16,405 nt of DNA, taken from IMG/VR virus record IMGVR_UViG_2563366929_000009; one strand, written 5' to 3'. The notes below the pieces were generated by a model, which did no database searches, was not told the origin of the DNA, and saw nothing but the letters and a program-made list of their open reading frames with translations. This document shows, in pieces, positions 1,358 through 16,405 of the stretch. A program made the translations under genes and the position numbers. The stretch is from a virus. Taxonomy: Duplodnaviria > Heunggongvirae > Uroviricota > Caudoviricetes. Position 1 is the first letter of the stretch. Each line of letters starts with the position of its first letter.

Positions 1358-1421
1358 GAGCGTCGTTCGCTAATCATGGTCGCCGCCACTATAGCTGGTG
1401 GGCAACGACCGGGGTTGAACA

Positions 1422-3893: not shown

Positions 3894-3993
3894 TTTGTTT
3901 TACCTCATTACAGATTTAAGGGTGAACAAATCCCTGCCGGTGATGCTGCCAACTTACTGATTTAGTGTATGATGGTGTTTTTGAGGTGCTCCA

Positions 3994-4269
3994 GTGGCTT
4001 CTGTTTCTATCAGCTGTCCCTCCTGTTCAGCTACTGACGGGGTGGTGCGTAACGGCAAAAGCACCGCCGGACATCAGCGCTATCTCTGCTCTCACTGCCG
4101 TAAAACATGGCAACTGCAGTTCACTTACACCGCTTCTCAACCCGGTACGTACCAGAAAATCATTGATATGGCCATGAATGGCGTTGGATGCCGGGCAACA
4201 GCCCGCATTATGGGCGTTGGCCTCAACACGATTTTACGTCACTTAAAAAACTCAGGCCGCAGTCGGTAA
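3994..4269 (+). CDS. insA: IS1 InsA (transposition inhibitor / N-terminal part of InsAB' transposase)
   Basis: 91-aa [27 protein letters not shown].. recognised as IS1 InsA. Confidence 0.9.
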
Positions 4270-4691
4270 CCTCGCGCATACAGCCGGGCAGTGATGTGAT
4301 TGTCTGCGCTGAAATGGACGAACAGTGGGGCTATGTCGGGGCTAAATCGCGCCAGCGCTGGCTGTTTTACGCGTATGACAGGCTCCGGAAGACGGTTGTT
4401 GCGCACGTATTCGGTGAACGCACTATGGCGACGCTGGGGCGTCTTATGAGCCTGCTGTCACCCTTTGACGTGGTGATATGGATGACGGATGGCTGGCCGC
4501 TGTATGAATCCCGCCTGAAGGGAAAGCTGCACGTAATCAGCAAGCGATATACGCAGCGAATTGAGCGGCATAACCTGAATCTGAGGCAGCACCTGGCACG
4601 GCTGGGACGGAAGTCGCTGTCGTTCTCAAAATCGGTGGAGCTGCATGACAAAGTCATCGGGCATTATCTGAACATAAAACACTATCAATAA
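4188..4691 (+). CDS. insB: IS1 InsB' reading frame (expressed as InsAB' transposase by -1 frameshift)
   Basis: -1 frame relative to insA and overlapping its 3' end; A6C slippery motif at 4243..4251. Sequence ..[30 protein letters not shown].. is typical IS1 InsB. Confidence 0.88.
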
Positions 4692-4784
4692 GTTGGAGTC
4701 ATTACCGAGAAAGATGATGTCTACATAGCCAATTGTATAGAAAAAGGTAAGACTGAATTTAAAGTAAGCAAAGATATTGCTGCG

Positions 4785-5159
4785 TTGCCTTTCAAGGGTG
4801 AACCCATCGAGAAAATTAGGGGAGAGCTAATCAGGTCAATCAAGGAACACTTGATCAGTGCAAGCTGGCATAGCACTAAAAAGGTAATCGACCGCTATGA
4901 AGCTACATTCGATATAAAAGTACAAAAAGACTGTCCGATAGAAGCTATTGAATTGGCAACCCTCAATCGAAATCACTTAGTGCATCGTGGTGGAAAGGAT
5001 AAAGAAGGGAACCTCGTAGTGATTACAGACCAGGATCTTGAAACGCTGATTGAAAATGCATCGAACCTGGCAATTATGCTCTACAACAGTTTAAATGTAG
5101 CAACGAATAAAACCACCATTTTGCAACCAGATGACAAACCGTTCATTCATGAATTTTAA
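4785..5159 (+). CDS. Hypothetical protein, probably a 5'-truncated remnant (frame open back to the IS1 junction at 4707)
   Basis: ORF-track start is TTG with no Shine-Dalgarno. The same frame stays open upstream to the insB stop at 4689..4691, with no ATG or GTG in between. AT-rich codon composition unlike the flanking prophage genes. No recognisable family motif. Confidence 0.45.
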   Translation: MPFKGEPIEKIRGELIRSIKEHLISASWHSTKKVIDRYEATFDIKVQKDCPIEAIELATLNRNHLVHRGGKDKEGNLVVITDQDLETLIENASNLAIMLYNSLNVATNKTTILQPDDKPFIHEF

Positions 5160-5174
5160 TAGCGCAGGTCATAC

Positions 5175-6176
5175 ATGGATATTCGCACACGAAAGACAAA
5201 ATTTTTAGAGTCGTTAGATTCAACTGAAGTGATACGCAAAGCAGTAAGTCTCGCTATAGATTGCATTATTGATAATCATAATAGTAATGAAGATACCCCC
5301 TTAGTTATTACCAGCTATGATGATCTCTGTAGAATCCAGGTGCTAAATTATGTACAGGAGTTTTGCGAAGCTGCATTCCCTGATATGGATGAATATTACT
5401 TTAGTCCTAACATACTTCGCATCAACGGCAAGACTAGTGAAGAAGCTTGTATTAACTTAATTAAACTCTTAAGAAGTACAAAAGGCATGCTATTCTGGTC
5501 CGATGCCCCATCGTGGTTCGCTAGCCTCCCCGACGGATTATTCCATGTTGTTAACATTGATCAAAAAATCGTTACTCGCGGCCTTAATAAGAAAAACTCT
5601 AAGCCGACAATAATCAATAAAGATTACAGTGTAGATACACTACTATCAGAGCTATTTTTGAATGGCGCACACATGGAGCAACCCAACGTACACAACGTTT
5701 CTGAGGGAAACATGAAGTTCTATGATGAATGCCATGCTGGATTAATCAGACCAATACCCGCTCCAATAGGCGCGTCATACGATGAAGAGATCACAATTAA
5801 TTCTCCAGATTGGCAAAAGCTCGCGTGTGTAGCTTTACGCCGCTATCAGTCGAAGGAATGTCATGACGGAATGCAATGGGATACAACCGATCATGGTTGG
5901 ACTGATGTAATCGCGTATCCATTCGTCGAAGAAATACAATCAATGGATAATAGTGGTTATCGACAATGTTTAGTTGGGCTGGTCACAATAAACAATTCAA
6001 ATGCAAATTCTCCGTACCTATCTACCGTTTGGATACATCCATTTTATCGCAGGAGAGGGTTATTAAGTAAGTTATGGCCAAAATTACAAGAGTTATATGG
6101 AAGTAACTTCGAAATTGAGCGACCTAATGAAAATATGAAAGCATTTCTGAAAAGTGCGAAACACGCAGATTACTAA
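5175..6176 (+). CDS. Hypothetical 333-aa protein with a C-terminal GNAT-acetyltransferase-like motif
   Basis: ATG with weak AGGT Shine-Dalgarno 5 nt upstream. Visibly AT-rich. C-terminal segment LVGLVTINN..YLSTVWIHPFYRRRGLLSKLWPKL resembles GNAT motif A (beta4-alpha3, V.P..RR.G). The N-terminal ~230 aa are unrecognised. Confidence 0.7.
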   Translation: MDIRTRKTKFLESLDSTEVIRKAVSLAIDCIIDNHNSNEDTPLVITSYDDLCRIQVLNYVQEFCEAAFPDMDEYYFSPNILRINGKTSEEACINLIKLLRSTKGMLFWSDAPSWFASLPDGLFHVVNIDQKIVTRGLNKKNSKPTIINKDYSVDTLLSELFLNGAHMEQPNVHNVSEGNMKFYDECHAGLIRPIPAPIGASYDEEITINSPDWQKLACVALRRYQSKECHDGMQWDTTDHGWTDVIAYPFVEEIQSMDNSGYRQCLVGLVTINNSNANSPYLSTVWIHPFYRRRGLLSKLWPKLQELYGSNFEIERPNENMKAFLKSAKHADY

Positions 6177-6492
6177 TTTATGAATCAGTCTGTGGAGTTA
6201 GGGTTGGTGTCAACAAGTAGGGTAAGAGCCTCAACGTGATGCTATGCCGACCTGCTCCCTGAGAATTCACACAGAAGGCTGCTAGCAATGTCTGCAGATC
6301 GCTCAAAGCGGACTAGAAGGTTAGCTTGCGTCGGACTTGGCGTATTTAAAGAAGTGCTGGTGGTGACTGGTTGTTGTGTTCCATTTCTACAGAACAAAAT
6401 CACAGAAACTATACCCAATAGTTATATTGAATCAATGATGAGACAGCCTCATATTTATCAGAACTGGTGTACGTCCAATACAGGAGGTTGTC

Positions 6493-6582
6493 GTGCTGGT
6501 TCTCAAATGTGCGCTAGCTATTGCGGCTGTAATGGCAATTTATTGTCTTGCTGTTGTTCTTATGGATCGCCTTTCTGATTGA
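6493..6582 (+). CDS. Candidate small hydrophobic peptide (29 aa: MLVLKCALAIAAVMAIYCLAVVLMDRLSD if GTG is read as Met)
   Basis: Near-consensus Shine-Dalgarno AGGAGG at 6482..6487, 5 nt before GTG at 6493. Single predicted transmembrane helix plus short charged tail. Possible -35 TTGAAT / -10 CATATT about 40-60 nt upstream. Below the ORF-track size cutoff. Confidence 0.3.
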   Translation: MLVLKCALAIAAVMAIYCLAVVLMDRLSD

Positions 6583-6793
6583 TTTTATATTGGCGAGGTG
6601 ACGGGAGTTAAGTAGAATTGCTGCGGGTGCTTGAGGCTATCTGCCTCAGGCATGAACACCAAAGGCAGATAGAGAAAAGCCCCAGTTAATATTACGCGTC
6701 CTGCAAGACGCTTAACATTAATCTGAGGCTCAATCTATGAACGGCAAATCTAGGTTAGCCTCTTACGTGCCGAAAGGCAAGGAGAAGCAGGCT

Positions 6794-6949
6794 ATGAAGC
6801 AGCAAAAGGCGATGTTAATCGCCCTGATCGTCATCTGTTTAACCGTCATAGTGACGGCACTGGTAACGAGGAAAGACCTCTGCGAGGTACGAATCCGAAC
6901 CGGCCAGACGGAGGTCGCTGTCTTCACAGTTTACGAACCTGAGGAGTAA
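6794..6949 (+). CDS. hokD: Hok/Gef-family type I toxin (HokD/RelF-like, 51 aa)
   Basis: MKQQKAMLIALIVICLTVIVTALVTRKDLCEVRIRTGQTEVAVFTVYEPEE is near-identical to my recollection of HokD. GGAGA Shine-Dalgarno 9 nt upstream. The in-frame upstream extension from 6737 (ORF-track 70-aa ORF) may be a mok-like leader ORF. Hairpin GGCGAGGG-agaaat-CCCTCGCC follows the stop, as at hok mRNA 3' ends. Confidence 0.85.
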   Translation: MKQQKAMLIALIVICLTVIVTALVTRKDLCEVRIRTGQTEVAVFTVYEPEE

Positions 6950-6987
6950 GAGACCCGGCGAGGGAGAAATCCCTCGCCACCTCTGAT

Positions 6988-7395
6988 GTGTCAGGCATCC
7001 TCAACGCACCCGCACGTAACCCGCTTCGGCGGGTTTTGTTTTTTCCTGGCATTCTGGTTTACAATTCGCACGCCAGCCTGAACAACTGGCACCTGCTGCG
7101 CCAGCAGAGACAACCGATGGCGCACGATACCAAATTACACAATTCTGATGATTCTGCCGTCTTTGCCAGCAGGCACGGGCGGCGTTCCCGCACTTTCAAA
7201 TCTGACTGGTTCCAGCATCCCCCATGCACTGAAGAACAGGCCGAGTGGCTAATTCAGTGCTACCGCAGACACGGATACGAGATTAAGAAAGCCCTCAGCC
7301 TCGATTATCGTCACTGGATAATCTCCGTCAGGCTTCCTTACTCCGAACGATCACCGCGTCCGTCCCGCACATTCCAGCAACGCATCTGGAGGTAA
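6988..7395 (+). CDS. Hypothetical protein (start uncertain: GTG 6988 or ATG 7117); occupies the rem-like slot between hok and the DUF968 gene
   Basis: Open frame ending at TAA 7393..7395, one nucleotide before the downstream gene; that gene's GGAGG Shine-Dalgarno lies inside its 3' end. GC-rich composition like neighbouring prophage genes. No family recognised. Confidence 0.4.
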   Translation: MSGILNAPARNPLRRVLFFPGILVYNSHASLNNWHLLRQQRQPMAHDTKLHNSDDSAVFASRHGRRSRTFKSDWFQHPPCTEEQAEWLIQCYRRHGYEIKKALSLDYRHWIISVRLPYSERSPRPSRTFQQRIWR

Positions 7396-7396
7396 C

Positions 7397-8443
7397 GTGC
7401 GAGTATTACTTCGACCTGTTCTGGTACCGGAACTCGGGCTGGTGATCGTTAAGCCGGGCCGTGAATCCATGCCGGTATTCCACAATACCCGGGTACTGGT
7501 GGAGCCGGAACCGAAAAGCATGCGTAATCTGCCGTCCGGGGTTGTTCCTGCCGTTCGCCAGCCGCTAGTGGAAGACAAAACATTGCTGCCGTTTTTCAGT
7601 AACGCACGGGTGATTCGTGCTGCTGGTGGTGCTGGTGCATTGTCTGACTGGCTGTTGCGCCATATTAAATCCTGCCAGTGGCCACACGGCGATTATCATC
7701 ACAGCGAAACCGTCATTCACCGTTATGGTACCGGCGCAATGGTGTTGTGCTGGCACTGCGACAACCAGCTGCGTGACCAGACATCCGAATCACTCGAGCA
7801 ACTTGCTCATCAAAACCTGTCAGCATGGATGATTGACGTCATACTCCATGCAATGAATGGCTCGCAGGAACGGGAATTATCGCTGGCTGAATTATCCTGG
7901 TGGGCGGTCCGCAATCAGGTGGCGGACGCGCTACCGGAAGCGGTATTACGTCGTTCGCTGGGGTTGCGTGCGGAAAAAATCCGCTCAATGTACCGTGAAA
8001 GCGACATCGTACCGGGAGAGCAGACCGCCACCAGCATACTGAAGCAGCGCACAAAAAATCTTGCGCCGCTGCCTCACGCCCACCAGCAAAACCCGCCACA
8101 GGAAGAGACGGTGGTCAGCATTGCCGTTGATCCTGAGTCTCCGGAATCTTTCATGAAACGACCTAAACGTCGCCGCTGGGTTAACGAGAAATACACACGC
8201 TGGGTGAAGACACAGCCGTGTGCGTGTTGTGGTAAGCCAGCCGACGATCCCCATCACCTGATTGGTCATGGTCAGGGCGGAATGGGGACAAAATCTCACG
8301 ATATTTTCACGCTACCGCTGTGTCGGGAGCATCACAACGAGCTTCATGCGGATCCTCTGGCGTTCGAAGAAAAGCATGGTTCTCAGGTTGATTTAATTTT
8401 TCGTTTTCTTGATCACGCCTTTGCAACTGGCGTGCTTGGGTAA
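7397..8443 (+). CDS. DUF968 / YdfU-like lambdoid nin-region protein with C-terminal Cys/His (HNH-like) cluster
   Basis: 348-aa ORF, GTG start with GGAGG Shine-Dalgarno. C-terminus CACCGKPADDPHHLIGHGQGGMGTKSHDIFTLPLCREHHNELH. Sits immediately upstream of rusA and Q, as ydfU does in Qin-type prophages. Confidence 0.75.
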   Translation: MRVLLRPVLVPELGLVIVKPGRESMPVFHNTRVLVEPEPKSMRNLPSGVVPAVRQPLVEDKTLLPFFSNARVIRAAGGAGALSDWLLRHIKSCQWPHGDYHHSETVIHRYGTGAMVLCWHCDNQLRDQTSESLEQLAHQNLSAWMIDVILHAMNGSQERELSLAELSWWAVRNQVADALPEAVLRRSLGLRAEKIRSMYRESDIVPGEQTATSILKQRTKNLAPLPHAHQQNPPQEETVVSIAVDPESPESFMKRPKRRRWVNEKYTRWVKTQPCACCGKPADDPHHLIGHGQGGMGTKSHDIFTLPLCREHHNELHADPLAFEEKHGSQVDLIFRFLDHAFATGVLG

Positions 8444-8455
8444 AAGAGGTGACTG

Positions 8456-8830
8456 ATGCTCATAGATTTGGTTTTACCTTACCCGCCGACGGTGAACACT
8501 TACTGGCGACGCCGTGGCAGCACATATTTTATCTCGGAGGAGGGAAAGCGTTATCGCCGGGCTGTGGCGCTTATTGTTCGCCAGCAGCGGCTGAAATTAA
8601 GCCTGTCCGGAAGGCTGGCGATAAAGGTGATTGCAGAGCCACCGGATAAGCGTCGTCGCGACCTGGACAATATCCTGAAAGCACCGCTGGATGCGCTGAC
8701 GCATGCGGGAGTGTTAATGGACGATGAGCAGTTTGATGAAATCAATATCGTTCGTGGTCAGCCAGTATCTGGTGGACGTATGGGGGTGAAGATTTACCCC
8801 ATAATGCATGAAGAGCAGGTCAAAAAATGA
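8456..8830 (+). CDS. rusA: RusA Holliday-junction resolvase
   Basis: 124 aa. Motifs ..PPTVNTYWRR.. and ..PDKRRRDLDNILKAPLDALTHAGVLMDDEQ.. match the RusA family (catalytic Asp cluster). AGGTGA Shine-Dalgarno. Confidence 0.9.
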   Translation: MLIDLVLPYPPTVNTYWRRRGSTYFISEEGKRYRRAVALIVRQQRLKLSLSGRLAIKVIAEPPDKRRRDLDNILKAPLDALTHAGVLMDDEQFDEINIVRGQPVSGGRMGVKIYPIMHEEQVKK

Positions 8831-9648
8831 AACTGGAAGATTTACCGAAATACTACTCCCCAAAATCCCCTGGCCTGACCGATGCATCGGCCTCAACGTC
8901 AAAAGATGCGCTGAGTATCACTGATGTGATGGCCGCGCAGGGCATGACACAGAATCGGGCTGAGATGGGGTTTTCTGCGTTCCTGGGGAAAATGGGCATC
9001 AGTATGAATGACAGGGCGCGGGCAACAGAATTACTGGCAGATTATGCACTCAGTCGGTGCGATCGTGTGGCGGCGTTGAGAAAACTTCCGGCAGAAATAA
9101 AACCGGTAGTGATGCGCATTATGGCTTCGTATGCGTTTGAAGATTATGCCCGTAGCGCGGCGAGCAAAAAACAGTGCCCTTGCTGTCACGGAAAAAAATT
9201 TATTGAAAGCGAGGTTTTTACAAACAAGATCCAGTATCCGGATGGTAAGCCACCAGTGTGGGCAAAGTGCACAAAAGGCGTGTATCCGTCTTACTGGGAA
9301 GAATGGAAAAAAGTCAGGGAGGTGGTAAAAGTTGCCTGTCCGGAGTGTGGCGGAAAGGGTGAGGTTTCCACCGCCTGTAAGGATTGCCGTGGGCGTGGTG
9401 TCGCCATTCATCGTGAAGAGTCGGTAAAACGTGGTATGCCTGTTATCAGAGATTGCCAGCGTTGTGGTGGTCGTGGCTGTGAAAGGCTGCCATCAACGGA
9501 GGCATTTAATGCCATATGCAAAGTGACGAGTGCTATCACGCTTGATACGTGGAAAAAATCAGTGAAACGCTTTTACGATACGTTGGTGGTTCGGTTTGAC
9601 ATTGAAGAGGCATGGGCGGAGCGGCAGTTAAAGAGGGTAACGCGATAG
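8827..9648 (+). CDS. Q: Late-gene antitermination protein Q-like
   Basis: 273 aa. Start overlaps the rusA stop (ATGA). Lies directly upstream of a pR'-like promoter. Carries four CxxCxGxG-type Cys repeats (CPCCHGKK, CPECGGKG, CKDCRGRG, CQRCGGRG). Confidence 0.8.
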   Translation: MKLEDLPKYYSPKSPGLTDASASTSKDALSITDVMAAQGMTQNRAEMGFSAFLGKMGISMNDRARATELLADYALSRCDRVAALRKLPAEIKPVVMRIMASYAFEDYARSAASKKQCPCCHGKKFIESEVFTNKIQYPDGKPPVWAKCTKGVYPSYWEEWKKVREVVKVACPECGGKGEVSTACKDCRGRGVAIHREESVKRGMPVIRDCQRCGGRGCERLPSTEAFNAICKVTSAITLDTWKKSVKRFYDTLVVRFDIEEAWAERQLKRVTR

Positions 9649-9653
9649 TGTTG

Positions 9654-9693
9654 TTGATTTTTCCCGAATCTGTGGTAAATTTGCTCTAACGAT
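9654..9693 (+). promoter_or_regulatory. Late promoter pR' with promoter-proximal pause element (qut region)
   Basis: -35 TTGATT (9654..9659), 16-nt spacer, -10 TAAATT (9676..9681). Downstream TTTGCTCTAACGATGGG closely matches the lambda pR' initial transcribed region (TAAATTTGACTCAACGATGGG), including the AACGAT pause-inducing element. Confidence 0.7.
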
Positions 9694-9730
9694 GGGCGTT
9701 TTATGCCTGACGTTAGAAGATTTTTTACAC

Positions 9731-9752
9731 CCCGCCGCCTGGCGGGTTTTTT
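9731..9752 (+). terminator. Intrinsic terminator tR'-like
   Basis: Stem CCCGCC / GGCGGG with loop GCCT followed by a T6 run, about 45 nt downstream of the pR' start region. Confidence 0.75.
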
Positions 9753-9872
9753 ATGACTGAAATCGCGTCAGTACAGTAAACGCGCTGGTGGCGGTGAATA
9801 CCTGTCTTTCAGCTTGCTGGCTTTTTCGACAAGAGTTATTGGTGTGTCACGTTAACCGGAAAAGGAAAAGAC

Positions 9873-10070
9873 ATGCTAAAACAGCAGGATATGACAGAAA
9901 CCGCCAGAGTGGTGTTTAATGAATTAAGCGTTACCGACCCGGCGACAGTCGGGGAGATAGCGCAGAATACTTACCTTTCACGCGAACGCTGCCAGTTAAT
10001 ACTGACTCAGCTGGTTATGGCGGGTCTGGCAGACTATCAGTTCGGTTGTTACAGACGCCTTCCGCAGTGA
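9873..10070 (+). CDS. Small hypothetical protein (65 aa) with possible helix-turn-helix
   Basis: AAGGAA Shine-Dalgarno before ATG. Segment ATVGEIAQNTYLSRERCQLILTQLVMAGL looks HTH-like. First ORF after tR' in the late operon. Confidence 0.5.
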   Translation: MLKQQDMTETARVVFNELSVTDPATVGEIAQNTYLSRERCQLILTQLVMAGLADYQFGCYRRLPQ

Positions 10071-10097
10071 AGGCTTTTTTATTTGTGGTAAATGGGC

Positions 10098-10128
10098 GGC
10101 TGGTGGGTGTTAGGGGCACCCACCAGCC
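10098..10128. repeat. Perfect 12-bp inverted repeat (GGCTGGTGGGTG / CACCCACCAGCC) with 7-nt spacer
   Basis: Seen directly in the sequence between the small HTH-like ORF and the methyltransferase. Not followed by a T-run, so more likely an operator or RNA structure than a terminator. Confidence 0.5.
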
Positions 10129-10220
10129 ATCTGCTCATGCGTCCGGATCACAAGCAAACCTCAGGCCCACTGCTTTGCGCAAAAGCAGAATGAGCCTATC
10201 AGAGACAGGCTTAATGATCC

Positions 10221-11270
10221 ATGCTTAATACTGTAAAAATATCCAGTTGTGAGTTAATCAACGCCGACTGCCTGGAATTTATCCGGTCGTTACCCGAAAA
10301 TTCTGTTGACCTGATAGTCACGGACCCGCCGTACTTTAAAGTGAAGCCTGAGGGCTGGGATAACCAGTGGAAGGGCGACGATGATTACCTGAAGTGGCTG
10401 GACCAGTGTCTGGCGCAGTTCTGGCGGGTGCTGAAACCTGCCGGAAGTCTTTACCTGTTCTGTGGTCATCGCCTGGCATCTGATATCGAAATCATGATGC
10501 GTGAACGCTTCAGTGTGCTGAACCATATTATCTGGGCGAAGCCGTCCGGACGCTGGAACGGATGCAACAAGGAAAGGCTGCGGGCGTATTTCCCCGCCAC
10601 AGAGCGCATTCTGTTCGCGGAACATTATCAGGGGCCGTATCGTCCGAAAGATGCCGGGTATGCGGCGAAGGGCAGTGCACTGAAACAGCATGTGATGGCC
10701 CCGCTGATTTCTTACTTTCGTGATGCGCGCGCGGCCCTGGGGATAACGGCAAAACAGATTGCAGATGCCACAGGAAAGAAAAACATGGTGTCGCACTGGT
10801 TCAGTGCCAGTCAGTGGCAGCTACCGAATGAAAGCGATTATCTGAAATTACAGGCGCTGTTTGCCCGGGTGGCAGAAGAGAAGCATCGGCGTGGTGAACT
10901 GGAAAAGCTCCACCACCAGCTGGTGGATACGTATACCTCACTGAACCGGCAGTATGCGGAGCTGCTGAGTGAATATAAACATCTGCGGCGGTATTTTGGC
11001 GTGACGGTGCAGGTGCCGTATACCGATGTGTGGACGCATAAACCGGTGCAGTTCTATCCCGGGAAACATCCGTGCGAAAAACCGGCAGAAATGCTGCAGC
11101 AGATAATCAGCGCAAGTAGCCGTCCTGGTGATCTGGTTGCGGATTTTTTCATGGGGTCGGGTTCAACGGTAAAAGCGGCGATGGCACTGGGGCGTCGTGC
11201 GATTGGTGTTGAGCTGGAGACCGGACGTTTTGAGCAGACAGTCAGGGAAGTTCAGGATTTAATCGTTTGA
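10221..11270 (+). CDS. Orphan DNA amino-methyltransferase, beta-class (N6-adenine or N4-cytosine)
   Basis: 349 aa. Catalytic DPPY motif near the N-terminus (SVDLIVTDPPYF) and AdoMet-binding FxGxG (FFMGSGST) near the C-terminus. Motif IV before motif I indicates beta-class. No adjacent restriction-endonuclease gene. Confidence 0.88.
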   Translation: MLNTVKISSCELINADCLEFIRSLPENSVDLIVTDPPYFKVKPEGWDNQWKGDDDYLKWLDQCLAQFWRVLKPAGSLYLFCGHRLASDIEIMMRERFSVLNHIIWAKPSGRWNGCNKERLRAYFPATERILFAEHYQGPYRPKDAGYAAKGSALKQHVMAPLISYFRDARAALGITAKQIADATGKKNMVSHWFSASQWQLPNESDYLKLQALFARVAEEKHRRGELEKLHHQLVDTYTSLNRQYAELLSEYKHLRRYFGVTVQVPYTDVWTHKPVQFYPGKHPCEKPAEMLQQIISASSRPGDLVADFFMGSGSTVKAAMALGRRAIGVELETGRFEQTVREVQDLIV

Positions 11271-11319
11271 AACGGATGAGATTGCAGAATTAATTACGCA
11301 CCATTATTATTCTGCTCCC

Positions 11320-11395
11320 GGCCCTTTAGCTCAGTGGTGAGAGCGAGCGACTCATAATCGCCAGGTCGCTGGTTCAAATCCAGCAAGGGCCACCA
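11320..11395 (+). tRNA. ileZ: tRNA with CAT anticodon, most likely tRNA-Ile2 (lysidine-type, ileZ-like); tRNA-Met not excluded
   Basis: 76 nt with encoded CCA. Acceptor stem GGCCCTT/AAGGGCC, D-arm AGCTCAGTGGTGAGAGC, anticodon loop CTCATAA, T-arm GGTTCAAATCC. Resembles my recollection of E. coli ileX. Confidence 0.85.
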
Positions 11396-11402
11396 TCACA
11401 TA

Positions 11403-11479
11403 CCGCCATTAGCTCATCAGGAAAGAGCGCCAGCCTTCGAAGCTGGTTGCGCGGAGTTCGGGTCCCCGAAGGCGGTCCA
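11403..11479 (+). tRNA. tRNA-like sequence with UCG (Arg) anticodon; degenerate, possibly a pseudogene
   Basis: Cloverleaf can be drawn (anticodon loop CTTCGAA) but with A.A mismatch in the acceptor stem, a mismatch in the T-stem and an atypical T-loop TTCGGGT (G at the conserved A58 position). Confidence 0.45.
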
Positions 11480-11492
11480 TTATCTGTATCCT

Positions 11493-11569
11493 GCGTTGTT
11501 AGCTCAGCCGGACAGAGCAATTGCCTTCTAAGCAATCGGTCACTGGTTCGAATCCAGTACAACGCGCCA
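11493..11569 (+). tRNA. tRNA-Arg (anticodon UCU)
   Basis: 77 nt. Acceptor GCGTTGT/ACAACGC, discriminator G and CCA. Anticodon stem ATTGC/GCAAT with loop CTTCTAA. T-arm GGTTCGAATCC. Confidence 0.85.
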
Positions 11570-11584
11570 CACTTATTTTCCCTG

Positions 11585-11608
11585 GCTCGCTTTTGCGGGC
11601 TTTTTTTT
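11585..11608 (+). terminator. Intrinsic terminator after the tRNA cluster
   Basis: GCTCGC-tttt-GCGGGC hairpin (one G.U pair) followed by a T8 run. Confidence 0.6.
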
Positions 11609-11614
11609 AAATGT

Positions 11615-11828
11615 CTCACAATTCAGGCGGTTGACTGTTGTCTGGTTTGCGGGGAGTTTGTTAAAAGAAACTGGCATGGTGAATCCCCCTGTGCGGAGGG
11701 GCAATCAGCGAGTAGGTATATGGGATAATCGCGGATTCAGGTGCTGGTACTGAATTCACCGGGAGGCACCCGGCACCATGCAATGGCACATAGCGCCACT
11801 CTCCAGCCCCTCTCCGGAGGGGCTTTTC
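11615..11828 (+). repeat. Structured unit A: promoter-like element, hairpin, SD-ATG and terminator modules
   Basis: Shares conserved blocks with unit B: CTCACAATTCAG, GTTGAC, TTTGTTAAAA, GCATGGTGAATCCCCCTG.GCGGAGGGGC, GGTATA, TCACCGGGAGGCACCCGGCACCATG, AGCCCCTCTCCGGAGGGG+T-run. Blocks are separated by divergent spacers. Tiny ORFs at 11778..11903 (41 aa) and coupled 11903..12004 (33 aa). Confidence 0.6.
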
Positions 11829-12018
11829 TGTGCCGGATACATCACAGTTTCTGGAACCTTAGGTACTACAGTATCAGTCAGGGTGCTATATTTTCAGATG
11901 TGATGAAAGCCTGTCAGCAGGCAGGGCGTATCGGAAATGACCCAGTAGAGAAAACGTTGACTCAGATACCGGTGCTGAGTTACCGGGAAACCGGCATCAC
12001 ATGACCGCTATCCTTCCA

Positions 12019-12045
12019 GGCCCATCCGCTCCGGTGGGCCTTTTT
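12019..12045 (+). terminator. Intrinsic terminator
   Basis: GGCCCA ... TGGGCC stem with 10-nt loop followed by T5. Confidence 0.55.
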
Positions 12046-12082
12046 ACTGCAGAAAACAGGTTCCCCGTTAAATGCTATGTTG

Positions 12083-12316
12083 CTCACAATTCAGTAAGTT
12101 GACAGTTGCCTGTCAGACTGGGCATTTGTTAAAAAAATTTCGCATGGTGAATCCCCCTGAGCGGAGGGGCGACTGGTGACGGTATAATCTCTGATTATCA
12201 AAACGAGAATGACGCGGGTTTAGTGGCACCGGGCTGAACTCACCGGGAGGCACCCGGCACCATGTGCATGATGATACAGATACGCGGCTTTAGCCCCTCT
12301 CCGGAGGGGTTTTCTT
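12083..12316 (+). repeat. Structured unit B (paralogue of unit A)
   Basis: Same conserved module set as unit A. Includes consensus -35 TTGACA (12099..12104) and consensus -10 TATAAT (12183..12188). Terminator CCCCTC-tccg-GAGGGG + TTTT at 12294..12316. Confidence 0.6.
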
Positions 12317-12322
12317 GTGGGC

Positions 12323-12351
12323 AAAAAAAGCCCGCGCTGGGAGACGCGGGC
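12323..12351 (-). terminator. Minus-strand intrinsic terminator, back-to-back with the unit B terminator
   Basis: A7 run followed by GCCCGCG-ctgggaga-CGCGGGC. On the minus strand this reads as stem-loop plus U7. Confidence 0.5.
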
Positions 12352-12544
12352 GGCAAGGAATAAACAATAAAACGTGAAGTAATATTTCAGCTGGCGAATA
12401 ATACCCCATAGTAATCACTCTGCGCAACTGCGCGGTCTTTTTCGAATTGCGGGCTGTCGTCTCTCTTCTGCCATTGTCCTGTAACTTCCGGACTTCAGCC
12501 CGCTCCTTATTTTACTCACAATATTATCCCGGCCGGGAGGATTC

Positions 12545-12772
12545 ATGGCATTTAAACACTATGACGTGGTCAGGGCGGTATCGCCGTCAGACCTTGCGAA
12601 ACGACTGACACAAAAACTGAAGGAGGGCTGGCAGCCGTTTGGTAGTCCGGTGGCCATAACCCCTTATACCCTGATGCAGGCGATTGCAGCAGAAGGTGAT
12701 GTGGTGGTCAGTGGTGCAACTGAGCCGGATTGGTACTACGTCATCGTACTGGCCCGGCATTCCAGGCCATAA
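12545..12772 (+). CDS. Hypothetical small protein (75 aa)
   Basis: Good GGGAGG Shine-Dalgarno 4 nt before ATG. Upstream region repeats short blocks of units A and B (CTCACAAT, CCGGGAGG). No family recognised. Confidence 0.6.
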   Translation: MAFKHYDVVRAVSPSDLAKRLTQKLKEGWQPFGSPVAITPYTLMQAIAAEGDVVVSGATEPDWYYVIVLARHSRP

Positions 12773-12976
12773 AAGACAGTCTGGCAGTGGGACTAAATGC
12801 ACTGACGCTGATGGATATTACCAAAAATGTAACGTATGGCGTTGAGATAGAAAGTCTGGCGCTGGAGATAAATGCACCGGCATCATCATAAAAAGTGAGC
12901 CAGTCAAATGGAAGGTATCGTTAAACTCACCGGTAGTGTCAGTGGGTCGTCTGAGACGCTTGCATGAGTTATCAGA

Positions 12977-13005
12977 GCCATCAGTAGTTAACTGGTGGCT
13001 TTTTT
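12977..13005 (+). terminator. Intrinsic terminator immediately upstream of the holin gene
   Basis: 9-bp stem GCCATCAGT / ACTGGTGGC (one G.U), loop AGTTA, followed by T6. Confidence 0.7.
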
Positions 13006-13040
13006 ATTGTTTTCAGCTTCCGGATAACGGGAGACGGGGT

Positions 13041-13256
13041 ATGGACCAGATGGAAAAAATCACAACAGGTGTGTCATACACCACGTCAGCGGTGGGAACG
13101 GGCTACTGGTTCCTGCAGTTGCTGGACAGGGTTTCCCCGTCTCAGTGGGCGGCAATAGGCGTGCTGGGGAGTCTGCTGTTTGGGCTGCTGACATATCTGA
13201 CTAACCTGTATTTCAAAATCAGAGAGGACCGTCGTAAGGCGGCACGGGGAGAGTAA
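13041..13256 (+). CDS. S: Class II holin (phage 21 S21-type pinholin), dual-start motif
   Basis: [71 protein letters not shown] is very similar to my recollection of S21. Met1 and Met4 give an antiholin/holin dual start. GGGAGA Shine-Dalgarno. The ORF-track upstream extension from 12936 is not supported. Confidence 0.9.
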
Positions 13257-13260
13257 TTCA

Positions 13261-13605
13261 ATGACTCAAAACTATGAACTGATTGTGAAAGGGATCCGCA
13301 ATTTTGAGAATAAAGTTACGGTAACTTTAGCATTACAGGACAAAGAACGCTTTGACGGTGAAATTTTTGACCTGGACATCTCGCTGGACCGTGTTGAAGG
13401 TGCTGCGCTGGAGTTTTATGAGGCAGCGGCCAGAAGGAGCATCAGACAGGTCTTCCTGGATGTCGCTGCCGGGTTATGTGAAGGGGATGAGCAGTCGCCG
13501 GAAAAGCGCCCCGTAATTTTAGAGGCGCAGAATGTATGGATAACCTACAAAGGAAAGCTACCGGGAAGGATTACTGGTTCCCTGAAGACTCCGCCGAAAT
13601 GGTAG
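13261..13605 (+). CDS. Hypothetical protein in the holin-endolysin interval (ydfR-like position)
   Basis: 114-aa ORF with GGGAGAG Shine-Dalgarno, starting 5 nt after the holin stop. Family not recognised from sequence. Confidence 0.65.
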   Translation: MTQNYELIVKGIRNFENKVTVTLALQDKERFDGEIFDLDISLDRVEGAALEFYEAAARRSIRQVFLDVAAGLCEGDEQSPEKRPVILEAQNVWITYKGKLPGRITGSLKTPPKW

Positions 13606-13843
13606 TTTTGCCAGCATAATTTTCTTCCAGCAATGCCGCCAGCCACTTGAAAGAATTTTGTTGTTCCTGGGACCATTTGGGGTTGCGTGATTCAAAATGA
13701 ATGGATGCCAGCGTTGGCAGCATTTGCTCCCTGGGAATTGATAAGGCCAGATGTGAAAATGCAACAGTGAGGGCATTTACATCATCCCGAAGCCTGGAAA
13801 TGCAGTCGAGCAACTCCTGTAGAGAAATGGTGCTATTGTCCAT
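13571..13843 (-). CDS. Candidate antisense-oriented gene (90 aa) inside the lysis cassette
   Basis: Minus-strand ORF with good AGAGGA Shine-Dalgarno 6 nt before ATG. Its 3' end overlaps the 3' end of the 13261..13605 ORF by 35 bp (convergent). No family recognised. Confidence 0.4.
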   Translation of the reverse strand: MDNSTISLQELLDCISRLRDDVNALTVAFSHLALSIPREQMLPTLASIHFESRNPKWSQEQQNSFKWLAALLEENYAGKTTISAESSGNQ

Positions 13844-13948
13844 AAATAATCCTCTTGATTGTCTTTACCTTTTCCCCGCCTGATTCAACAGGCCGGGACA
13901 GATAAACATATCCAGGGTTCAGAAACCGATAAATCCTGATAAATATCC

Positions 13949-14482
13949 ATGAACGCAAAAATCAAATACGGCCTGTCAGCTGCAGTTCTGGCGCTGATTG
14001 GAGCAGGCGCATCAGCTCCTCAGATACTTGACCAGTTTCTGGATGAAAAAGAGGGTAACCACACTACGGCATACCGCGATGGTTCCGGCAACTGGACCAT
14101 CTGTCGGGGGGCCACGATGGTGGATGGAAAACCCGTTTTTCCCGGTATGAAACTGTCGAAGGAAAAATGCGACCAGGTCAACGCCATTGAGCGTGATAAG
14201 GCGCTGGCATGGGTGGAGAAAAACATCAAAGTGCCATTGAGCGAACCCCAGAAAGCGGGGATCGCGTCATTCTGTCCGTACAACATTGGTCCCGGTAAGT
14301 GTTTCCCGTCGACGTTTTATAAACGAATTAATGCAGGTGATCGCAGGGGAGCGTGTGAGGCGATTCGCTGGTGGATTAAGGACGGTGGCAGAGACTGCCG
14401 TATTCGTTCAAACAACTGCTACGGTCAGGTATCCCGTCGTGACCAGGAGAGCGCGCTGGCGTGCTGGGGTATCGACAGATAA
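13949..14482 (+). CDS. R: SAR endolysin (phage 21 R21-type lysozyme)
   Basis: 177 aa. N-terminal signal-anchor-release segment (LSAAVLALIGAGASAP) and lysozyme catalytic region (..DEKEGNHTTAYRDGSGNWTICRG..). Confidence 0.9.
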   Translation: MNAKIKYGLSAAVLALIGAGASAPQILDQFLDEKEGNHTTAYRDGSGNWTICRGATMVDGKPVFPGMKLSKEKCDQVNAIERDKALAWVEKNIKVPLSEPQKAGIASFCPYNIGPGKCFPSTFYKRINAGDRRGACEAIRWWIKDGGRDCRIRSNNCYGQVSRRDQESALACWGIDR

Positions 14483-14576
14483 GCAGAATATTTTGCTGAA
14501 AAATAAGGCATGGCCACGCGGGCGGATAACATGAAATCCTGCGAAGTGGCGAAACGTAAGTGAATAAAAGTAAAAA

Positions 14577-14606
14577 CCCCGTTTGTTGGCACCAAGCGGG
14601 GTTTTG
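14577..14606 (+). terminator. Intrinsic terminator between endolysin and Rz
   Basis: 9-bp stem CCCCGTTTG / CAAGCGGGG (one G.U), 7-nt loop, then TTTT. Preceded by AAAA, so it may act bidirectionally. Confidence 0.65.
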
Positions 14607-14680
14607 TGTTTCCTGACTCCGGAAAAGTCAAAGGAGAAAGTGTGTTTGATTTTAGCAAACTGATTCGGGAGATTCGAGTG

Positions 14681-14779
14681 ATGGCTGAAAAATTATCCAC
14701 CTGGAAGTTCATTCTTATCTGGCTGGTGTTTGTGATTATGGCCTCTGGTTATTTCATCGGTCAGATACGCTGGTGGTGA
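14681..14779 (+). CDS. Candidate small membrane peptide (32 aa; alternative GTG start at 14642 gives 45 aa)
   Basis: [32 protein letters not shown] has a single hydrophobic helix. AGGAG at 14633 and GGGAG at 14667 could each serve as Shine-Dalgarno. Stop TGA is 1 nt before the Rz ATG. Below the ORF-track size cutoff. Confidence 0.35.
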
Positions 14780-14780
14780 A

Positions 14781-15245
14781 ATGAACCGCGTACTGTGCGT
14801 GGTCATCATTGCCCTGCTGGTGGCCTGTGGTGCGCTTAGTCTGGGGCTGAATCATTACCGTGATAACGCCATTACCTACAAAGCCCAGCGCGACAAAAAT
14901 GTCAGAGAACTGAAGCTGGCGAACGCGGCAATTACTGACATGCAGATGCGTCAGCGTGATGTTGCTGCGCTCGATGCAAAATACACGAAGGAGTTAGCTG
15001 ATGCGAAAGCTGAAAATGATGCTCTGCGTGATGATGTTGCCGCTGGTCGTCGTCGGTTGCACATCAAAGCAGTCTGTCAGTCAGTGCGTGAAGCCACCAC
15101 CGCCTCCGGCGTGGATAATGCAGCCTCCCCCCGACTGGCAGACACCGCTGAACGGGATTATTTCACCCTCAGAGCGCGACTGATAATAATGCAAAAACAA
15201 CTTGAAGGGGCACAGCTATACATTCGAGAGCAATGCCTCAGATAA
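14781..15245 (+). CDS. Rz: Rz i-spanin (lambda-type)
   Basis: 154 aa, near-identical over most of its length to my recollection of lambda Rz (..[107 protein letters not shown]..). Confidence 0.88.
15001..15183 (+). CDS. Rz1: Rz1 o-spanin lipoprotein (embedded in Rz, +1 frame)
   Basis: 60 aa. Lipobox-like VVGC after a hydrophobic signal, proline-rich mature part ([16 protein letters not shown]). Fully embedded in Rz as in lambda. Confidence 0.8.
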
Positions 15246-15679: not shown

Positions 15680-16405
15680 TAATGCCGATCAGTTAAGGAT
15701 CAGTTGACCGATCCAGTGGCTGTGTAAGAATCCGGAAACGCTCACTTGTTTCCGGATTTTTTTATGCACATTGGACAGGCTCTTGATCTGGTATCCCGTT
15801 ACGATTCTCTGCGTAACCCACTGACTTCTCTGGGGGATTACCTCGACCCCGAACTCATCTCTCGTTGCCTTGCCGAATCAGGTACTGTAACGCTACGCAA
15901 GCGCCGTCTTCCCCTCGAAATGATGGTCTGGTGTATTGTTGGCATGGCGCTTGAGCGTAAAGAACCTCTTCACCAGATTGTGAATCGCCTGGACATCATG
16001 CTGCCGGGCAATCGCCCCTTCGTTGCCCCCAGTGCCGTTATTCAGGCCCGCCAGCGCCTGGGAAGTGAGGCTGTCCGCCGCGTGTTCACGAAAACAGCGC
16101 AGCTCTGGCATAACGCCACGCCGCATCCGCACTGGTGCGGCCTGACCCTGCTGGCCATCGATGGTGTGTTCTGGCGCACACCGGATACACCAGAGAACGA
16201 TGCAGCCTTCCCCCGCCAGACACATGCCGGGAACCCGGCGCTCTACCCGCAGGTCAAAATGGTCTGCCAGATGGAACTGACCAGCCATCTGCTGACGGCT
16301 GCAGCCTTCGGCACGATGAAGAACAGCGAAAATGAGCTTGCTGAGCAACTTATAGAACAAACCGGCGATAACACTCTGACGTTAATGGATAAAGGTTATT
16401 ACTCA
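15680..16405 (+). mobile_element. IS4: IS4-like insertion sequence, left part (runs past the window end)
   Basis: Sequence from TAATGCCGATCAGTTAAGG matches my recollection of the IS4 terminus. It is followed by a 10-bp-stem hairpin plus T7 (15730..15764) and the transposase start. The right end is outside the window, so the boundary is approximate. Confidence 0.7.
15764..16405 (+). CDS. IS4-family transposase, N-terminal 214 codons (partial, continues beyond window)
   Basis: Frame open from ATG 15764 to the window end with no stop. [36 protein letters not shown].. recognised as IS4 transposase. Absent from the ORF track because no stop lies inside the window. Confidence 0.8.

Follow-up and report, generated by a model that had tools for sequence, protein, structure and literature searches.

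The window analysed here is a stretch of 16,405 nucleotides (nt) from a tailed phage (Caudoviricetes; IMG/VR record IMGVR_UViG_2563366929_000009). Between positions 9873 and 11270 it holds a small open reading frame (ORF) of 65 amino acids (aa), a perfect 12-bp inverted repeat and a gene for a 349-aa methyltransferase, in which the motif DPPY precedes FxGxG. All of these had been pointed out in the original prediction, and the ORF list, the repeat search and Pfam place them where it did. We find that the repeat lies in a conserved, structured leader which ends at the start codon of the methyltransferase gene, and that the enzyme belongs to the M.EcoGII family. Hence, we suggest that a dedicated leader RNA, new to Rfam, precedes this M.EcoGII-type gene and probably gates the translation of a toxic enzyme.

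The structure of the leader was built by hand and the alignment was redone with a covariance model, R1. An RNAalifold run on the raw MAFFT alignment had recovered only a partial structure, with the E. coli-type rows shifted, and was replaced. The pairing set contains 52 sequences from Enterobacteriaceae, Erwiniaceae and Morganellaceae. In this set 94.6% of the leader cells are paired, versus 29-43% when the partners are slid. Two-sided changes occur in 14 of the 41 leader pairs, and none of 500 shuffles reaches the observed pairing or covariation values. The leader of the window itself folds with a z-score of -5.3. R1 matches all 52 genome loci and all 97 sources of the viral set (the window and 96 viral loci), once each, with 100-181 bits. 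Strong purifying selection acts on the leader, whose divergence is 3-4 times lower than that of synonymous sites next to it: 0.15-0.21 versus 0.55-0.67 at the four-fold sites of the adjacent methyltransferase gene, where the amino acids differ by 0.22-0.29 (1275 pairs). Conservation spans about 140 nt, beyond the Chi octamer that is discussed below, and includes invariant single-stranded blocks between the co-varying helices.

The leader is linked to the methyltransferase gene and not to the small ORF. In the loci of Enterobacteriaceae, Erwiniaceae and Morganellaceae the R1 match always ends at the methyltransferase ATG. All 102 viral loci with the leader core and enough flanking sequence have the methyltransferase directly downstream, and 15 of them are without the small ORF. 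The leader is likewise retained in at least 11 genome loci that lack the small ORF, where it follows dissimilar upstream genes or comes immediately after the tR' terminator. Because it always abuts the ATG and persists without the small ORF, we regard the leader as a cis-acting element tied to the methyltransferase.

The inverted repeat, GGCTGGTGGGTG (10098-10109) and CACCCACCAGCC (10117-10128), has 12-nt arms that are 100% complementary and a 7-nt spacer. It is the sole perfect inverted repeat of the 16.4-kb window with arms of at least 12 bp and a loop of 3-10, where 300 dinucleotide-preserving shuffles of the window give a chance mean of 0.013. In the leader it corresponds to the helix P1, which shows compensatory changes in 7 of its 12 pairs in the 52-sequence alignment. 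The Salmonella arms, GACTGGCAGGGTG and CACCCTGCCAGCC, contain one more C-G pair, inserted, and have A-T in place of a T-A; neither Chi octamer is left after these changes, and the stem is kept. It is also kept in Providencia (GACTGTAAAGGTG and CACCCTTACAGTC) and in Proteus (GACAGTGAGGATG and CATCCCCGCTGTC). In phage 1720a-02 (CACTCACCAGCC) and in the most frequent viral variant (CACCTGCCAGCC, 54 of 120 contigs) the arms pair solely via G·U wobbles. P1 is extended by P1a, in which AUGGGC (10092-10097) pairs with GCUCAU (10133-10138), leaving a 4-nt internal loop on the 3' side; the whole stem of P1a and P1 has a folding energy of -32.6 kcal/mol. Variation in P1a is restricted to alternation of G·U with G-C and of U-A with U·G. 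P1a and P1 together contain about 84 G·U cells, which would become C·A mismatches on the minus strand or in a palindrome at the DNA level. Since the arms change compensatorily or via G·U wobbles, the comparison indicates that the inverted repeat is a + strand RNA hairpin, the apical helix of the leader, and not a DNA operator. The perfect 12-bp repeat is thus the E. coli-lineage version of a general hairpin, because the relatives keep the stem with other sequence.

Downstream of this stem, P2 is formed by GGAUCA (10145-10150) with UGAUCC (10215-10220), the last six bases ahead of the AUG, together with AAGC (10152-10155) and GCUU (10209-10212). It is 89.9% paired, with five pairs changed on both sides. 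The hairpin P3 (10164-10196), inside P2, is 93.9% paired and has two such pairs. Upstream of the leader, the hairpin P0 (-8.9 kcal/mol) is kept in relatives by two-sided changes, for example GCCTCC/GGAGGC and CTGCCA/TGGCAG, as judged by eye. Photorhabdus and Xenorhabdus (loci L055-L087) have a shorter leader, with a P1-like hairpin about 100 nt before the methyltransferase ATG and without P2 and P3. This hairpin, e.g. GGCTGGTG...CACCAGCC, shows compensatory variants (GGCGGGTG/CATCCGCC) and is often followed by a T run; the covariance model gives these loci just 25-29 bits.

Several other elements were considered in the same region. An alternative helix of GCCCAC and the 5' P1 arm was rejected on reading the sequences, as Morganellaceae do not keep it. 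A leader peptide from the AUG at 10092 would have 33 codons in the window versus 7-20 codons with different stops in the relatives, and a 60-aa ORF at 10046-10228 has no Pfam match and its frame is broken by indels in the hairpin; neither was retained. At the 5' end of the leader, TGTGGTAAAT was tried as a promoter of its own; its hexamer is poor, other genera have the degenerate forms GGAAAT or GAAAAT, and nothing came out of the promoter scan. Part of the -10 region of the late promoter pR' recurs at the leader's 5' edge, as the direct repeat ATCTGTGGTAAAT (9668-9680) / ATTTGTGGTAAAT (10081-10093). Both copies are followed by ATGGGCG within 0-14 nt, and other genera have GTGGAAAT or GTGAAAAT at the leader-edge copy. 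From these sequences a second promoter at this edge appears unlikely.

In Rfam 15 no family reaches its gathering threshold at 9640-10260, and a search with a permissive E-value gives no credible family for the leader or the repeat, P26 being the best sub-threshold match (21 bits against a cut-off of 36). No description of the small gene or the leader was found in the searchable literature, and a comparative paper on pR' mentions neither the methylase nor the small ORF (PMC6266700). Within Rfam and the searchable literature the leader is thus undescribed.

Table 1. Features of the late-operon start and the leader in the window.
Feature	Position	Strand	Evidence
Q, lambda-type late antiterminator	8827-9648	+	PF03589 E=2e-49; 31% identity to lambda Q, full length, E=1e-37
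pR' core: -10 hexamer TAAATT (9676-9681), -10-like element AACGAT (9688-9693)	9674-9696	+	lambda alignment
tR'-like intrinsic terminator, CCCGCC-GCCT-GGCGGG then T6	9731-9752	+	terminator scan; about 40 nt downstream of pR' core
Gene of the 65-aa winged-helix protein, PHROG 331	9873-10070	+	homologues, selection, AlphaFold model, phrog_331 profile
P0, terminator-like hairpin, GCCTTC-CGCAGT-GAAGGC then T6	10057-10080	+	terminator scan; overlaps small-ORF stop codon
Structured 5' leader RNA of the methyltransferase gene	10079-10220	+	covariance model, pairing counts, divergence, fold z-score
P1a and P1, long hairpin	10092-10138	+	fold energy, compensatory changes
P2 enclosing P3	10145-10220	+	pairing counts, some double changes
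Beta-class methyltransferase, M.EcoGII / M.EcoGI orthologue	10221-11270	+	PF01555; identity to M.EcoGII
Three transfer RNA (tRNA) genes: CAU (Ile in RefSeq), Arg-UCG, Arg-UCU	11320-11569	+	ARAGORN, Rfam, RefSeq

The methyltransferase matches PF01555 (N6_N4_Mtase; E=3.6e-43) over residues 29-340. Its motifs follow the beta-class order, DPPY at residues 35-38 (10323-10334) and then FMGSG, as FxGxG, at residues 310-314 (11148-11162); the order DPPY, target-recognition domain, FxGxG has been described for M.EcoGII (PMC5778455). The enzyme is identical to M.EcoGII at 330 of 350 positions (about 94%), target-recognition domain included, and both proteins have 349 aa; the reference is a machine-read copy from the supplement of PMC11551740 with some errors, so the true identity may be slightly higher. 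Identity to the enzyme of phage 1720a-02 is 94.8%. All features of the M.EcoGII family that were checked are present, and the enzyme is a member of this family. M.EcoGII itself, as reported by Murray et al. (2018, PMC5778455), is a 349-aa beta-class enzyme encoded in an E. coli O104:H4 C227-11 prophage. According to this paper it methylates adenines whatever their context, on DNA as well as RNA, is unexpressed in the lysogen and belongs to 'a very large family' in E. coli prophages, with a close relative in phage 1720a-02. M.EcoGI, identical at 333 of 349 positions, was reported to be equally non-specific (PMC5778455), reconstructed ancestors of the family were reported to be largely non-site-specific on RNA (PMC11551740), and M.EcoGII was described as lysogen-silent and toxic (PMC12707154). 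The window enzyme shares with M.EcoGII and M.EcoGI the length, the orphan beta-class type and the location on a lambdoid prophage. It differs from them in prophage and host lineage (extra-intestinal pathogenic E. coli, ExPEC, of phylogroup B2 type, no stx) and in about 20 residues, some of which may be machine-reading errors.

Judging by this orthology, the window enzyme should methylate all adenines in any context as a non-specific N6 methyltransferase. The original prediction had left the target sequence open; the relation to M.EcoGII predicts it to be any adenine (PMC5778455). It also proposed to take the lack of a new methylated motif on expression as a refutation; this is misleading, since the methylome of a strain expressing an M.EcoGII orthologue is expected to contain no discrete motif. 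The profile search it had proposed for deciding between N6-adenine and N4-cytosine gives PF01555, and the N6-adenine assignment comes from the identity to M.EcoGII. Its view of the enzyme as a beta-class orphan holds: no restriction-enzyme gene is annotated or recognisable near the methyltransferase by the Pfam search and the RefSeq annotation. An anti-restriction role during induction, which it had also put forward, agrees with what has been proposed for the enzyme family (PMC5778455, PMC12707154).

The small ORF, in which a helix-turn-helix-like segment had been noticed, is a genuine gene under purifying selection. It has an ATG start with the Shine-Dalgarno sequence AAGGA at 9862-9866, 6 nt before the ATG. 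Its coding frame is conserved, as the original prediction required: of 90 Enterobacterales loci, 73 have a homologue adjoining the methyltransferase, and the most distant ones, in Xenorhabdus, Photorhabdus and Rosenbergiella, still share 37-50% identity. The full methyltransferase is carried by 72 of the 74 near-identical small-ORF loci, and 87 of the 102 viral loci with leader core and methyltransferase contain the small ORF. The synonymous sites are saturated, with a proportion of synonymous differences (pS) of 0.6-0.9, versus 0.09-0.2 for non-synonymous differences (pN) in Enterobacteriaceae comparisons, and dN/dS is 0.05-0.2 where computable.

The AlphaFold model of the small protein (pLDDT, the predicted local distance difference test, 91.9) has three helices and a beta-hairpin and forms a winged helix. 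Foldseek finds generic winged-helix domains with E around 1e-3, among them IclR and MarR regulators, N-terminal domains of O-methyltransferases and the SelB domains that bind SECIS (selenocysteine insertion sequence) RNA. The Pfam search of the protein gives a weak TrmB winged-helix match below the cut-off (E=0.0044) and no match to HTH_3/Xre, to Com or to a zinc ribbon; a zinc-finger signature is absent. In PHROGs the protein belongs to phrog_331 (E=2.8e-37), a family annotated as of unknown function. The small winged-helix protein is a frequent but dispensable partner of the module. In loci L025 and L026 (2058-2297 in each) its gene is swapped for that of a 79-aa CxxC-rich protein before the same leader and methyltransferase; we considered this protein as Com-like and rejected it, as it matches neither Com nor any Pfam family.

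The whole module is the start of the late operon in a lambdoid prophage of ExPEC. Just 3' of Q the window aligns to the lambda pR' core as GGTAAATTTG.CTC.AACGATGGG; the blocks GGTAAATTTG and AACGATGGG are identical to lambda, and 2 of the 4 bases between them differ. In lambda these elements of the pR' core serve as promoter and pause signal. Because the lambda-like Q gene, pR' and tR' precede the module, Q-dependent late expression, already assumed in the original prediction, is well supported by the layout. Everything from tR' through the lysis genes is on the + strand, and the tRNA genes are followed by holin, lysozyme and Rz; RusA and DUF968 genes are further neighbours (Pfam, RefSeq annotation). 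In Klebsiella, Salmonella and Buttiauxella the pair of small ORF and methyltransferase stands behind a Q of another Pfam family or behind unrecognised upstream genes, and across other genera it is found after three different Q families. The stretch of about 60 nt preceding the small ORF (within 9800-9872; CTTGCTGG...AGAGTTAT.TGT.TGTCA...AAAAGACATG) is kept across genera despite the differing Q/pR'/tR' units upstream; it may represent a mosaic boundary or else a further leader element.

We regard the following sequence of events as probable. In the lysogen, transcripts from pR' should stop at tR'. On induction, Q would make RNA polymerase terminator-resistant, so that transcription runs through tR', the small gene, P0, the leader and the methyltransferase gene and on to the tRNA and lysis genes. 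The leader would limit or time the translation of the toxic methyltransferase, with P2 pairing the six bases immediately before the AUG and the long P1a/P1 hairpin serving as a protein-binding or processing site. The enzyme would then methylate the replicating phage DNA broadly, and virion DNA would be heavily N6-methylated and shielded from many restriction systems in the next host. Translational gating is proposed because the methyltransferase gene has no upstream Shine-Dalgarno sequence, P2 abuts the AUG and Mu com-mom offers a precedent.

In phage Mu the 62-aa regulator Com binds a hairpin beside a stem that holds the start codon of mom (PMC6483171), and com-like genes stand upstream of the non-specific adenine methyltransferases hin1523, hia5 and nma1821 in Mu-like prophages (PMC3299994). 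Both systems appear to comprise a late, toxic, broadly adenine-modifying enzyme, a gene for a nucleic-acid-binding protein of about 62-65 aa immediately upstream in the same transcript (co-transcription is presumed for the window), and a hairpin with a helix after it that takes in the start region of this gene for the enzyme (in the window the proposed P2, pairing bases -6 to -1). However, Com is a zinc finger and the window protein is a winged helix, the RNAs have no sequence similarity, the enzymes are of different families, and the leader of the window type exists without the small gene in many phages. By analogy, the module resembles com-mom in logic, with a putative regulator that is not Com, and the small protein may modulate the leader as Com acts on mom mRNA. 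Published work on M.EcoGII describes neither the upstream small gene nor the leader RNA.

The original prediction likened the arrangement to controller-protein (C-protein) restriction-modification systems, and the corresponding explanation is that the 65-aa protein acts as a C-protein-like transcription factor on the 12-bp palindrome as its operator and regulates methyltransferase transcription. There is indeed a small helix-turn-helix-type gene directly upstream and a perfect palindrome between the two genes; palindromic DNA is a common target of dimeric winged-helix proteins, and IclR and MarR regulators are among the top structural matches. However, the protein is not of the Xre type and has only the weak TrmB match in Pfam, a restriction gene is absent, and Q antitermination would drive expression. 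C-box operators lie upstream of the C gene and are kept as DNA, whereas here the repeat is downstream of the putative regulator gene, inside the Q-driven transcript, with no site nearby in the promoter scan. As DNA the palindrome is imperfect in most relatives and yet it still pairs as RNA via G·U; it changes by compensation in Salmonella and Morganellaceae, and the same hairpin is found in leaders of loci that have no small gene. None of the three defining features of a C-protein system that were checked is found, and the arrangement is not such a system; we hold operator control by the small protein to be the least probable of the explanations considered. The repeat might otherwise matter as DNA by presenting a back-to-back pair of Chi sites (GCTGGTGG, + at 10099 and - at 10120), which would tame RecBCD arriving from either side as part of a general Chi enrichment of the phage. 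Both arms contain an exact Chi, the window has 14 sites versus 0.59 expected, most Enterobacteriaceae leaders retain the Chi of the 5' arm, and Chi-rich lambdoid phages are documented (PMC12315714, PMC3784561). Against this, the minus-strand Chi of the 3' arm is largely confined to the E. coli-type lineage, plus a few loci elsewhere, most relatives having a Chi-free 3' arm (CACCCGGCCAGCC or CACCTGCCAGCC). Salmonella, Providencia and Proteus lose both sites and keep the stem, and the conservation runs well past an octamer, over about 140 nt. We find this account improbable for the repeat as a whole; a secondary Chi role of the 5' arm is possible.

A serious alternative to gating is that P1a/P1 makes the leader mainly an element of RNA processing or stability, with RNase III-type cleavage separating the two messages, or a residual terminator. 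The hairpin is long and stable, with the 4-nt loop on its 3' side, and its equivalent in Xenorhabdus and Photorhabdus, often followed by a T run, looks terminator-like. With about 18-20 bp and an asymmetric internal loop it presumably resembles phage RNase III sites, and the start region is not clearly sequestered. However, processing leaves the strong conservation of the downstream 80 nt, i.e. P2, P3 and the single-stranded blocks, unexplained. The window has AUCUGCUC after the hairpin and not a U run, so it is no intrinsic terminator here: the terminator scan, in which the hairpins at 9731 and 10057 qualify, does not list the inverted repeat, whose stem is followed by ATCTGCTC. We consider a mainly processing or stabilising function unlikely on balance. 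The conserved region may also be thought of as a ligand-sensing riboswitch or a free-standing small RNA, given its invariant single-stranded blocks between co-varying helices, the very strong purifying selection and the lack of a match to known families. The promoter and terminator scans found none of its own, however, and it is invariably joined to the start codon of the methyltransferase gene. There is no known candidate ligand, and covariation supports no alternative structure; such an RNA is very improbable to us.

The preferred explanation, a dedicated leader that gates translation, has to be set against several points. The double changes in P2 and P3 come mostly from a few clades or lineages, and their support is below that for P1. 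The viral alignment (97 sequences, 54 of them distinct) is 96% paired, and its covariation does not exceed that of shuffles, since these sequences vary too little to contribute any. One and the same set of sequences served to derive the structure and to score it, and the identity figure for M.EcoGII rests on a machine-read supplement sequence that contains errors. The unpaired probability of the start region (partition-function computation, -15 to +5 of the start codon) is 0.43 ± 0.12, versus 0.46 ± 0.06 for the small ORF, and the other genes of the window are alike. This accessibility is ordinary, and sequestration of the start codon as a thermodynamic effect is unsupported. Finally, many phages keep the leader without a neighbouring small gene, so the protein cannot be an obligatory activator. 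Weighing these points, we lean towards the leader being some dedicated regulatory RNA, with or without a protein. The fullest form of the proposal is tentative and rather doubtful: there the leader would be a new class of cis-regulatory RNA for the M.EcoGII family, gating translation or processing, with the PHROG-331 protein as its RNA-binding modulator and a non-homologous analogue of Com.

The module is widespread. The region 9650-11320 is 100% identical to prophage DNA in many ExPEC chromosomes, including MS8345, NU14, UM146 and ATCC 11775, and 2443 of the 5426 complete E. coli genomes carry related copies, with as many as 8 in one genome. In the phage collection 287 records match across 9700-11400 at 81-94% DNA identity, most of them Shiga toxin (Stx)-converting phages annotated 'hypothetical protein | DNA methylase | tRNA'. 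The order Q, pR', tR', hypothetical gene, DNA methylase and tRNAs is common to these phages and the window; they differ in that stx follows the tRNA genes there, whereas the window prophage is without stx. In a Klebsiella aerogenes prophage (L006, 4344-4560) the small ORF and the leader are intact and the methyltransferase is cut after about 45 codons by tRNA-gene-bearing DNA.

Other features of the window were recorded alongside. The 14 Chi sites (GCTGGTGG) span 1394-14823, 10 of them on the + strand, against the expectation of 0.59 from shuffles. A second opposed, overlapping Chi pair, CCACCAGCTGGTGG (10913-10926), is a 14-bp perfect palindrome inside the methyltransferase gene and encodes HHQLV, a stretch common to M.EcoGII. 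The tRNA gene at 11320-11395 is called Met (anticodon CAT) by ARAGORN and tRNA-Ile in RefSeq; this fits an ileZ-like tRNA with a modified CAU anticodon, known from Stx phages. Downstream of the tRNA genes, in the late region, there are two full-length matches to STnc100, a small RNA family of Rfam (11645-11835 and 12113-12322, 136 and 161 bits). A sok antitoxin RNA (6625-6799, 113 bits) adjoins a hokD-type toxin gene that is annotated in the identical RefSeq record, and a further perfect inverted repeat, with arms of roughly 10-11 bp, lies at 15729-15758, downstream of Rz.

Last but not least, what the original prediction had singled out is mostly ordinary and already explained; the new element is the leader RNA, together with a possible link to PHROG 331. 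M.EcoGII is a widely used reagent for chromatin and RNA footprinting, and the searchable literature holds no description of how phages control such a toxic enzyme. The module is very common and is also found in most late regions of Stx phages, directly upstream of the tRNA and stx genes. For annotation, such 'DNA methylase' genes should be named non-specific adenine methyltransferases, and the palindrome should not be labelled an operator. The leader, being strictly tied to the methyltransferase, gives a concrete and testable handle on the control of the enzyme and suggests a candidate function for the PHROG-331 winged-helix family.

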